From the NCBI GenBank assembly GCA_051294905.1, contig CM119371.1, positions 8,310,001 through 8,374,000 of the forward strand: a DNA stretch of 64,000 nucleotides, given 5' to 3'. The notes beneath the pieces were generated by a model. It had not been told where the DNA came from. It made no database searches and saw only the letters and a program-made list of their open reading frames with translations. The translations under genes and the position numbers were made by a program. This document shows positions 22,729-36,348 of this stretch, in pieces (the first letter of the stretch is position 1; each line of letters opens with the position of its first letter). This DNA comes from Botryllus schlosseri (taxonomy: Eukaryota).

Positions 22729-22948
22729 ATGTATATGCGAATAAAATCAATAGTTTCAAAGTTTGCTTAGTACGTTTAAGGGCGATATTCGCTACGTTCA
22801 TTATAGCAATCATCTCAATCAGCAGTAGCGACTTGCTTTCGGTTAGGTGATAGTGGCTACATATTACCATTATCTAGCAAGAACCAGGAATTTGTATTGA
22901 GTGACTTCGCTAGTAGTTATTATGATCGCTCAACCGGTGGCAGGGGTT

Positions 22949-23320
22949 CTTATGGGCGGGGTGGTGAGGTGCCTGAAAACCGGGGGTGGTGAGCGGCTCC
23001 TTATACCTTATGGCGGGGTGGTGAGCGGCTATTGCGTCTTATGGCGGGGGTCGTGAGCGGCTCTTATTTCTTATGGCGGGGGTCGTGAGCGGCTGGAAAA
23101 CCGGGGGTGGTGAGCGGCTTTTATGTCTTATGGCGGGGGTCGTGAGCGGCTATTGTGTCTTATGGGTGTGGTGGCGAGCGGCTATTGTGTCTTATGGTCG
23201 CACGGTAACCCTTTTCAGCATAGGGATCGGTCGCAAGCGGCTCTTATGTCTTATCGCGGAGGTGGCATACGGCTATTGCGTCTTATGGTGGGGGTGGCAA
23301 GCGGCTATTGTGTCTTGTGG
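22949..23320 (+). repeat. GC-rich ~32-bp subterminal tandem repeat (mirrored at ~35975-36312)
   Basis: Units like CTTATGGCGGGGGTCGTGAGCGGCTATTGTGT repeated about 10 times with variation. Confidence 0.9.
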
Positions 23321-33100: not shown

Positions 33101-36100
33101 TGGTTTCATTACAAGGTGAGTGAAAATTGTTTTCTGTTGGTCAGGTATGATTTGCATTTAGAAAAACGATCTACACCGATTAAGCGACGCTGTTTCATAT
33201 CTGATGAGTGAGTGAAATTTCCTTATGGTTTGATTTAGCGAGTTAATTATCGGTGATTCAATCAGATACAAGTAAGATCTTTAGTGACAGAGTATTGTGA
33301 TGACATTTACTTTAGCGAATGACAACGGAAAAATTTTCGATTACATTGTCGGTGTATGTGTTACACAAATAATTCTAGTACACCTAACCATAGGGTACAT
33401 TTGGCAAACATCGTACAAAGTGTTTCTTTGTGTTGGTAACGACTTTCAGCGGTTTGGTTTCATGTCGGGAATTATTATTTGAGGGTTCAAAAAACAATTT
33501 CAATCAATGCTACAAATGAACAACAATGCAAAACACGTTTAGTGAATTACAGTGTAGCAAGTACTTCCTTAATATTACGATTGTTGTGCACTAGACATTT
33601 CTAGTTGAATTGAATGCGTCGAGCAAACATATTCAATTTACTTTTGTAATGATCAAAGTCTTGCAACCTCGTGATATTTTACATTTAGCACGGTCTATAG
33701 AAAGTGTGAACGGAGTTGAGTATTAATCGTGTACTTGGGATAGTGCTTTGATATCAAAGATATATTTTCACACTGTGTAATGTTTCGATTCTCTGTTGTG
33801 AATACCTCCAGTAACGACATTGATGTTAAATCCTCACTCTTGGTCATTGTAAGCGAATCCTAAACATCGCAACAGTCGGTATGGAAATCGAACGCATGCA
33901 TACTTTTAGATAGGCGACACTAACAAGTTTATTACATCCGTGAAATACTCTGAAACGTCGATTCGTGATTGTGTTAGCTATATTCATCTTCTATATCTGT
34001 GGACACAAAGAATTCTTAACTTTGGTTACAGCTCATTCGTAACGAATTGTTGCGTGCAATCTAGAAAAGCACAAGTCGAAGACGAATGATTTGATTTCAA
34101 TAAACTAAAAAAAAATCCTTTTGTTTTGATGTTGGATTTAATACAATTTGTATGACTATACCGAATCCGAAAGTGCAATGTTACTTTAGTAGAAAAATTG
34201 GGTGACTCGCATTTTGATATTGATAGATGTGTAGAGTAATATGACTAGTTTATAAAATCTCGGTAATGTTTTTTTGTCATGTCTGTGATCAACAAATATG
34301 TGATCAAGTCTTACCATTCGATATTAACTTTCGCAGTCGGTGTAATTTGTTGAAGTAACAATACCGACGAGTTCAATAATATTCTCCATCGATGCATTCG
34401 AATAATCCGTTAGCTGCAAGCGGATTTAAAACTTGATGCTGTTTCGCGGTTAACTCAAGTCAGTGGTCGTGTTTGTGTTGATTTCAGGAATGATCATGAC
34501 GAGTTGCTTGGGTAGATTAGTTAATGTGGTTGTAACTACGACCGTACAGAGTTGCTGACACCCCAATATCTTTTACGCTGTAATATACGGATTTAATTGT
34601 GATAAATTAATTCTCAGTTATTGTTCGGACATTCAAATCTCGTATACTCAAAATATAATATGTCCAAGTCAAATCGTATATGTACCGATTAGTAAATACT
34701 TTGTCTTACAGAATAGTAACGACCTTTACAGTCGAATAAAAACGACCGATCATACGAATACATTCAGGATGAATTAAAGTTTGTGAGTTGTAGTGATATA
34801 ATCAAGTAAGTGAAAACTAGATTTTTAACAATTGTTAATGTTGTGAAGAATTCTTTTGAGTATGGTAAGATGTTAAAATATCTCTTTGACAAACGGAAAG
34901 CGGGATCGCGAATAGAGTTGCAATGTTTCATTACTTGTTTCAAATCAATGAGCATATAATATCGAAATGGGACTGCGGGAAAGTTGGTAGTCATGTTTGT
35001 CAATCTATTTCAATTCAGACTATGTCAAAGTCCAAATATTTCATTTTGGATTATTTGGATTTACCTTTAGTACATCCGCGAATGGATTCCGACACCGTAC
35101 TATAATTAGATCGCTATGTCTGATGCATTATCGCGTCACCGACGTAGGATTTTACAATTATTTCACACCTTTTTTGAATAAGCGTCAACTTCACAGAGGA
35201 TTAGGGTTGGGGCAGAAATAAGTGAAAATTTGTCGGTATTCGAATCACCGTCTACGCCGGCTCTGTTATTCGTTACTTATTAAATTTTACCAGTGAAATC
35301 CGGTTCTGTGACAAACTAAGTACCAAAATAGTATCTTGCGAGTGATTGGAATGTATGTAACAGCAAGTCGCGAAAGATGGTTATGTCCGAGACAATATCT
35401 TGTCAGCGATCGCGGGGTTTGCAACCTATTTCACACCTTTTTGAAGTGTTAGTTTGTGGACGCGGCTATTGTTGGTATCACCGTCTACGCAGGTTATGTG
35501 ACAAACTTATTACCAAAATATTACTTGTGCGTGATTCCTATCTTTGTAACATCAAACCACGAGAGATGACTATTCTGATGTGCAATCTTGTGAGTGGTCG
35601 TAGGAAATATTTCACACCTTTTTGGAGTGTTAGTATGTGAACGCGGCTATTGTTGGTATTCGAATCGTCGTCTACACCGGCTCTGTGGTAAACTAAATAG
35701 CAAAACATTACCATGCGACTGATTCGAAAATTGCGCTATCGCGGTGAAGTCACGACTGTGAACAGCAGACTATTCTGTAGGTGCGAAACAGCGGTATACA
35801 AGGTGCGAATAACCCGATCTGAAAGTACTATTCAGGTTACGTAGAAATCAATAGCGACGAAAGACTTAGAACACGATCGGTCATTTGTCACGACTAAACT
35901 ACATCATATATAATAATTCACGATATACGCATTAACAAAGGTTCATTCAGCGAATCACCAGAGATCTGCGACCACAAGACACAATAGCCGCTTGCCACCC
36001 CCACCATAAGACGCAATAGCCGTATGCCACCTCCGCGATAAGACATAAGAGCCGCTTGCGACCGATCCCTATGCTGAAAAGGGTTACCGTGCGACCATAA

Positions 36101-36348
36101 GACACAATAGCCGCTCGCCACCACACCCATAAGACACAATAGCCGCTCACGACCCCCGCCATAAGACATAAAAGCCGCTCACCACCCCCGGTTTTCCAGC
36201 CGCTCACGACCCCCGCCATAAGACGCAATAGCCGCTCACCACCCCGCCATAAGGTATAAGGAGCCGCTCACCACCCCCGGTTTTCAGGCACCTCACCACC
36301 CCGCCCATAAGAACCCCTGCCACCGGTTGAGCGATCATAATAACTACT
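30136..36348 (-). repeat. Right arm (6213 bp) of the giant inverted repeat
   Basis: Reverse complement of 22912-29157. Confidence 0.97.

Follow-up and report, generated by a model that had tools for sequence, protein, structure and literature searches.

Mavericks, or Polintons (adintoviruses), are recognized by terminal inverted repeats (TIRs) that start with (AGT)2 or (AG)3 and by a perfect 6-bp target-site duplication (TSD) (PMC8097293). By definition, Polintons encode a protein-primed DNA polymerase (pDNAP) and an integrase (PMC5499653), and homologues of Bcl2 and IAP occur in adintoviruses (PMC8502044). A second system is Galileo, a member of the P superfamily. Copy 112 of Galileo in Drosophila willistoni is 9,021 bp long, has TIRs of 4,246 and 4,680 bp and contains no transposase segment; the TIRs of Galileo grow by tandem-repeat expansion and by recruitment of internal sequence (PMC4168063). 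A third is provided by the adenoviruses, whose packaging domain is close to the left end and whose incomplete particles contain left-end DNA (PMC5033970); for adenovirus 12, a helper-dependent "symmetric recombinant" (SYREC) with host DNA has been described (PMC2396429). Here we describe a locus that resembles each of these systems in part. In a stretch of 64,000 nt from Botryllus schlosseri (assembly GCA_051294905.1, contig CM119371.1, positions 8,310,001 to 8,374,000 of the forward strand; hereafter the window, whose numbering we use throughout), a palindromic insertion with Maverick-type ends, the inner element, is nested within a Maverick-like element, the outer element. The inner element is a non-autonomous, foldback-shaped, Maverick-type element that was probably integrated in trans and that probably arose by inverted duplication of one end.

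The inner element occupies positions 22912-36348 and is a 13,437-bp insertion that forms a near-perfect palindrome, as seen both with a repeat finder and by global alignment. It opens with AGTAGT and closes with ACTACT, giving (AGT)2//(ACT)2 termini: the left end reads AGTAGTTATTATG... and the right end ...CATAATAACTACT, its exact complement. The window contains this 24-nt terminus at two places only, one per strand; 0 occurrences are expected. The insertion point lies 180 nt downstream of the last open reading frame (ORF) of the outer element, which picks up exactly after the second copy of the duplicated TTCGCT and is continuous across the insertion; the window contains no N. The repeat finder resolved the palindrome into three inverted pairs: 23047-28331/30961-36245 (5,285 nt, 100%), 28319-29157/30136-30974 (839 nt, 98%) and 22912-23062/36198-36348 (151 nt, 100%). 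When the right arm was reverse-complemented and aligned globally with the left, there were 17 mismatches in 6,213 aligned columns (99.7% identity), together with a 32-nt indel at 23037-23068, corresponding to one unit of a subterminal repeat, and a 1-nt indel at 28318. These results reproduce the arms of 6246 and 6213 bp and the 978-bp loop of the original prediction, find its 6-bp TSD, TTCGCT, at both flanks of the AGTAGT/ACTACT ends and show that its wording, a near-perfect palindrome, was accurate. It had also held that the terminal sequence differs from that of the outer element, and this too is borne out: the two termini have in common the first 6 nt and a few scattered letters, and each element has its own, different subterminal repeats. 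We conclude that the inner element is a real, integrated insertion with Maverick/Polinton-type ends.

The arms look non-coding. The first ~400 nt of each have a G+C content of 57% and are built from 32-nt repeats, within which the 14-mer GGTSGTGAGCGGCT occurs seven times at the left end and six at the right; these 13 occurrences, against 0.02 expected, are the only ones in the window. The right end is one copy short because the 32-nt indel is the missing repeat unit. On sequence grounds, these repeats are candidate binding sites for the proteins that would mobilize the element. The arm interior has a G+C content of 36.5% and includes an array of 21/41-nt repeats that accounts for 11 of the 17 arm-to-arm mismatches. 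None of the 85 stop-to-stop ORFs of at least 40 amino acids in 22912-30135 reached a Pfam cut-off (best E-value 0.013), and the longest stop-free stretch in 23341-27840, at 102 codons, compares with 95.9 +/- 18.5 in 200 shuffles, so that the arms appear to be free of genuine ORFs. Specifically, this search found no polymerase (pPolB, the protein-primed B-type polymerase), integrase, ATPase, protease or capsid gene in the inner element, in agreement with the earlier claim that integrase, capsid and polymerase are missing. The same 85 ORFs include no transposase and give no indication of kinship with the FB or P/Galileo elements, and scans of the window for Rfam families and tRNAs had no matches. 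At the DNA level, the inner half matches the remainder of the window at one place only: 29243-29471 pairs with 14716-14944 (69% nucleotide identity), and this stretch corresponds to a 91-codon gene in the core. Because the likeness is confined to this gene, the arms are not derived from the outer element.

The stop of this core gene lies 52 nt from the left arm boundary. Its product is 59% identical over 87 residues (E 3e-39) to that of an ORF of the outer element, 14685-14960, and the ratio of nonsynonymous to synonymous substitution (dN/dS) for the pair is 0.17, with dS close to saturation. A search of 1.84 billion representative proteins returned two matches at E <= 0.001, and a search of 5.8 billion clusters returned four relatives (P0003, P0005, P0006 and P0007), which are 68-93% identical and all 90-91 amino acids long. 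There were no relatives in the viral contig or metagenome contig collections, Pfam gave nothing usable, the best ESM Atlas score (0.89) was below the reliable range, and the predicted structure was unusable, with a predicted local distance difference test score (pLDDT) of 43. As the gene is intact, has a paralogue at a dN/dS of 0.17 and has few relatives, all of much the same length, it is a real, small and lineage-restricted gene. Each of the four relatives is on a contig of 922-1,075 nt, near the 978 nt of the core; such contigs could be ~1-kb low-copy islands between high-copy arms elsewhere, or they could be plain 1-kb transcripts. The core also contains a short (CA)n run, at 29720-29740.

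How does the inner element compare with the described systems? It is like a Maverick in its (AGT)2//(ACT)2 ends and perfect 6-bp TSD (PMC8097293), in its location within an element that encodes an A32-type ATPase, an rve+chromo integrase and the anti-apoptotic BIR and Bcl-2, and in having a core gene whose paralogue resides in that Maverick-like element. It is unlike one in lacking the genes for pPolB, integrase, ATPase, protease and capsid, and in its 6.2-kb arms, where TIRs in a vertebrate survey measured 46-1,447 bp (PMC8097293). Its overall shape is that of a foldback element, with very long TIRs, arrays of 32-nt and 21/41-nt repeats and little unique middle (978 nt). Like Galileo, it is non-autonomous and consists of almost nothing but a pair of very long TIRs that contain tandem repeats and AT-rich stretches (PMC4168063). 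It differs from Galileo in having AGTAGT ends and a TSD of 6 bp rather than 7-8 bp (PMC4168063), in its presumed enzyme, a retrovirus-like integrase and not a P-type transposase, in its longer arms and in the conserved small gene of its core.

The remaining comparisons concern replicons in which one terminus is duplicated in inverted orientation. They include the DNA of incomplete adenovirus particles, the adenovirus 12 symmetric recombinant, which is reportedly palindromic, and a "hairpin plasmid" that reportedly derives from the yeast killer plasmids. The inner element is like them, as reported, in its inverted duplication of one terminus and its dependence on a helper; those replicons, however, are extrachromosomal or packaged, whereas the inner element is integrated with a TSD, belongs to a high-copy chromosomal family and has no known free form. 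Copy-back defective genomes of RNA viruses consist of one end and its reverse complement and arise by template switching. They have the same formal shape as the inner element, but they are RNA, are not integrated and depend on unrelated polymerases, so that the likeness is one of analogy only.

Read data place the inner element in a very abundant family. Part of 22912-30135 is present in 20 of the 24 public runs listed, which come from 12 studies and carry four organism labels; six runs contain half or more of the sampled words, labels B-D contain 0.42-0.45 of them, and no RNA run is among the matching runs listed. Three DNA sets (Logan contigs: X1, which may be the source sample, and two sets from other studies, X5 and X6) and one RNA run were mapped on 22300-30200. 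The RNA run contributed 85 reads, 79 of them fitting only partly. Depth was compared in bins wholly on one side of the boundary, with the outer flank represented by 22300-22827 and the inside by 23092-30200. Summed word depth in X1 was ~3,100 in the flank and 16,000-395,000 inside; the corresponding values were 1,700-2,100 and 11,000-510,000 in X5, and 230-430 and 660-36,000 in X6. The bin that straddles the boundary (22828-23091), which was kept apart, gave 34,050, 86,779 and 3,518 in X1, X5 and X6, respectively. Across the three DNA sets, arm and core therefore have a summed depth ~4-250 times that of the outer-element flank. In X1, 98,120 contigs were mapped, of which 55,175 are only 95-99% alike. 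This combination of depth and contig variety implies a very abundant and varied repeat family rather than a one-off. The outer element also belongs to a multi-copy family with variants, since its dominant variant in X5 and X6 differs from the present copy at ~10 places in ~260 nt (within 22300-22827).

We consider inverted duplication of a single end to be the probable origin of the palindrome. The integrase, of the rve type and supplied by a related autonomous element, would have joined both ends to a 6-bp staggered cut in the host DNA; integration in trans, which the original prediction had also proposed, follows from the fact that the inner element encodes no enzymes. The palindrome itself would have come from one inverted duplication of a single left-end fragment, either by template switching (copy-back) during strand-displacement replication or by fold-back priming at a break, and either in the present copy or in the founder of its subfamily. 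Two features of the arms point this way. First, among the 40 rows listed of 49 rows of variable places, 22 places are in the arm, and at 12 of these (Table 1) both arms carry the letter that is the rarer one in the family in each of the three DNA runs, with the alternative letter making up 76-100% of the counted depth. The 12 minority letters common to both arms imply that the arms descend from one copy and not from two members of the family. Second, outside the tandem arrays there are only six differences between the arms, and four of them lie in the 725 nt adjoining the core (a density of 5.5 per kb, compared with 0.43 per kb; binomial P = 0.004 in a post-hoc test), a clustering that fits error-prone synthesis right after a template switch at 30135/30136. 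As to which arm changed, the indication is weaker: only one of the six differences (28743) appears among the variable rows listed, and the absence of the other five suggests that at those places the left arm has the family's common letter and the right arm a private one.

Several observations weigh against an inverted duplication, or at least do not favor it. The minority letters and the clustering would also fit an older element with long TIRs, in which homogenization from arm to arm is poorer near the edges; likewise, the 32-nt indel at the outer edge and the differences near the core fit a gene-conversion edge effect in such an element. In X5 and X6, the counted depth of the minority letters of the present copy is zero or close to it, so that the palindromic copy is unconfirmed outside its probable source sample. 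The public contig collections yielded no other copy, non-palindromic parent or autonomous partner, and the inner terminus, searched as an exact pattern, had 0 matches in the viral, metagenome and genome contig collections. Nor can the integrase of the outer element be named as the helper, because the subterminal repeats of the two elements differ. In X1, depth is ~33,000 at the termini, 16,000-28,000 over most of the core and 72,000-395,000 in the arm interior, which thus exceeds the other two ~2-12-fold; the arms may therefore contain, or be related to, repeats that are more abundant still, and may be a mosaic of other host repeats rather than one family. Finally, the mapped contigs listed are short (88-229 nt), none of them bridges an arm/core junction, and the 15 joints listed, of 106, include none that changes strand. 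For this reason, the order arm-core-arm comes from the assembly alone, and the reads neither confirm nor contradict it.

Deletion derivatives are the usual source of non-autonomous DNA transposons, and the main alternative, which we regard as somewhat unlikely, is of this plain kind: a parent with ~6-kb repeat-filled TIRs would have lost its coding middle, keeping the TIRs and the small gene beside the left one. The core gene is placed as the first internal gene of such a parent would be, so close to the left arm boundary; the contigs of its relatives would fit a ~1-kb core between high-copy arms, and would fit 1-kb transcripts equally well; and no loose end at 29157/29158 or 30135/30136, the two arm/core junctions, is among the 21 of 1,092 listed. 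The size of the parent argues the other way. Intact vertebrate Mavericks have TIRs of 46-1,447 bp, and an element with a coding set between two non-coding 6.2-kb TIRs would be larger than any intact one in that survey, in which the maximum is 24.6 kb (PMC8097293). Moreover, a parent with 6-kb TIRs did not turn up, although no genome-wide search for one was made. Inverted duplication is thus the best-supported origin, yet it is not separated from a deletion derivative of a long-TIR element.

The arm features would also fit a second alternative, in which the inner element is an endogenized copy-back defective genome, or satellite, of a Maverick virus, made during protein-primed replication, packaged or carried by a helper, and then integrated. 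The 12 minority letters and the differences near the core apply here too, and there are precedents among protein-primed linear DNA replicons in adenovirus, adenovirus 12 and, reportedly, the hairpin plasmid. We nonetheless judge it unlikely: the arms are without virus genes and in depth profile their interior resembles very abundant repeats of the host, nothing points to a free, replicating or packaged form, and no helper with matching ends is known. It is similarly doubtful that the family, having begun as an endogenized copy-back genome of a Maverick/adintovirus-like virus and having kept its replication and integration ends and the 91-amino-acid gene, spreads as a satellite many-fold more numerous than its helpers.

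In a family of such abundance one insertion could plausibly land in or beside another, and two independent members could have come to lie head to head, by insertion or recombination, with a subsequent deletion. This is very improbable, because about half of the mapped family contigs differ by 1-5% from the present copy, whereas the arms differ from each other by only 0.27% and have 12 minority letters in common, and because there is a single TSD pair, at the outer ends. Long-read libraries are known to fail at long palindromes, and no read or contig listed crosses the arm/core junctions, but a fold-back chimeric read or mis-join is the least credible explanation of all: on either side the palindrome borders on the same 6-bp duplication, and the outer element, which has a TSD and a perfect pair of TIRs itself, resumes exactly, and such an artifact would not create a second terminus beside a duplicated target; in addition, the arms differ by 17 substitutions and two indels, the arm difference 28743 T>G is found in an X1 contig, and the window is free of N.

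Table 1. Positions of features of the inner element and of the outer element that surrounds it (window coordinates)
Feature	Position	Strand	Basis
Inner element: TSD, left copy, TTCGCT (perfect 6-bp)	22906-22911	.	read directly
Left arm, 6,246 nt, opens with AGTAGT	22912-29157	+	inverted repeat, alignment
Subterminal 32-nt tandem repeats	22947-23316	+	count of 14-mer GGTSGTGAGCGGCT
Three loose direct repeats, ~185 nt each, within arm	23580-24140	+	repeat families
21/41-nt tandem array within arm	27925-28432	+	tandem repeat finding
Places with family-minority letter in both arms	23434, 23708, 23953, 24080, 24665, 26378, 26546, 26770, 26954, 27334, 28112, 29069		
Unique core (loop), 978 nt, 44% G+C	29158-30135	.	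inverted-repeat boundaries
Intact 91-codon gene plus stop (MGLRVTVHRF...)	29209-29484 (codons 29212-29484)	-	ORF, paralogue, relatives
Right arm, 6,213 nt, reverse complement of left arm, closes with ACTACT	30136-36348	-	inverted repeat, alignment
Inner element: TSD, right copy, TTCGCT	36349-36354	.	read directly
Outer element: TSD, CATGGA	12170-12175 and 38965-38970	.	read directly
Left part of outer element	12176-22911	+	TIRs, ORFs, Pfam
Outer left TIR	12176-12652		
ORF, 187 amino acids	12823-13386	-	
BIR/IAP	13322-13957	-	above Pfam cut-off
92-codon paralogue of core gene	14682-14960 (14685-14960 without stop)	-	
Bcl-2	15452-16138	+	above Pfam cut-off
A32-type ATPase (Pox_A32)	16535-17152	+	above Pfam cut-off
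rve+chromo integrase	17893-18912	+	rve 54 bits against cut-off of 32.6; Chromo 34.2 against 25.1
Two distant paralogues	18982-19881 and 19863-20600	+	19% identity over 249 residues, E 3e-12
Candidate capsid protein, 425 amino acids	20999-22276	+	sub-threshold double-jelly-roll match, 15.6 against 27 bits
Possible cysteine protease, 151 amino acids	22261-22728	+	PDB search: E 0.53 to S273R protease of African swine fever virus
Right part of outer element: ~2.1 kb without ORFs or Pfam matches, then right TIR (38488-38964)	36355-38964	+	

The outer element spans 12176-38964 (26.8 kb, or 13,346 bp without the insert) and has TIRs of 477 nt that are 100% complementary, with ends that read AGTAGTGTTATGGG... 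All ORFs of at least 150 amino acids in the window fall within 12823-22728. Of the 85 relatives of the integrase, those with names belong to mussels and a ribbon worm and are 35-38% identical to it. Neither of the two neighboring paralogues has a Pfam family. For the next ORF, "capsid" is a candidate label only, because the double-jelly-roll match is below threshold, there were 0 sequence matches in PDB, there are just two relatives (none of them in the viral contig collection) and the model was unusable (pLDDT 40). The label "protease" for the following ORF is a possible one, drawn from position and a weak likeness. None of the 39 ORFs of the outer element matches a polymerase family, and its 21 remaining ORFs gave no Pfam matches. 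The ORFs for the ATPase, integrase, candidate capsid protein, BIR and Bcl-2 are intact. Without a polymerase gene, however, the outer element is not a complete Polinton, as the definition in PMC5499653 requires pDNAP, and it looks, from its gene content, non-autonomous for replication itself.

The idea that the inner element is nested in another Polinton is therefore correct in so far as the surrounding element is Maverick-like and has TIRs and a TSD of its own. The original prediction had gone on to derive the inner element from the left ~7.2 kb of a second Polinton family. In that form the derivation is not supported: there are no recognizable Polinton genes, the arms are ORF-free, and the sole link to Maverick-like elements is the 91-codon core gene. 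Its description of a parasite of a parasite is also weak and not supported as written. The summed word depth of the inner family far exceeds that of the outer, so that landing in a Maverick copy may be incidental; and the outer element, which has no polymerase and has other subterminal repeats, is no obvious helper.

Other repeats are present around the inner element. The non-coding right part of the outer element contains direct repeats (36378-36479/36781-36882, 93%; 37328-37417/37849-37938, 84%), and the host flanks contain collinear direct-repeat blocks of 74-87% identity (for example, 46664-47970 and 54599-56006, or 9848-10462 and 57973-58949), which suggest other dispersed repeat families. 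The observed/expected ratio of CpG is 1.06-1.28 in the host flanks and both elements, with no depletion anywhere in the window.

The usual picture of Mavericks/Polintons is of virus-like elements that are present in few copies, densely packed with genes and bounded by short TIRs. Derivatives that have Maverick ends but no genes are scarcely discussed in the literature, and the passage found, in PMC5499653, concerns Tlr1 elements. At this locus, a Maverick-type pair of ends flanks 13 kb of almost gene-free palindromic DNA, and the inner family is far more abundant than the Maverick-like element that surrounds it, yet has retained a single small conserved gene. In addition, an abundant repeat that forms a 6-kb perfect hairpin might give rise to double-stranded RNA. 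If the copy-back satellite were the true explanation, the inner element would be the first sequence-level trace of template switching in protein-primed Maverick replication, and the first trace of a defective-interfering-like lineage that became a major genomic repeat. If this is a mobile palindromic family, Maverick integrases would be able to amplify passengers to high copy number, and the family would provide a handle on how these elements replicate.

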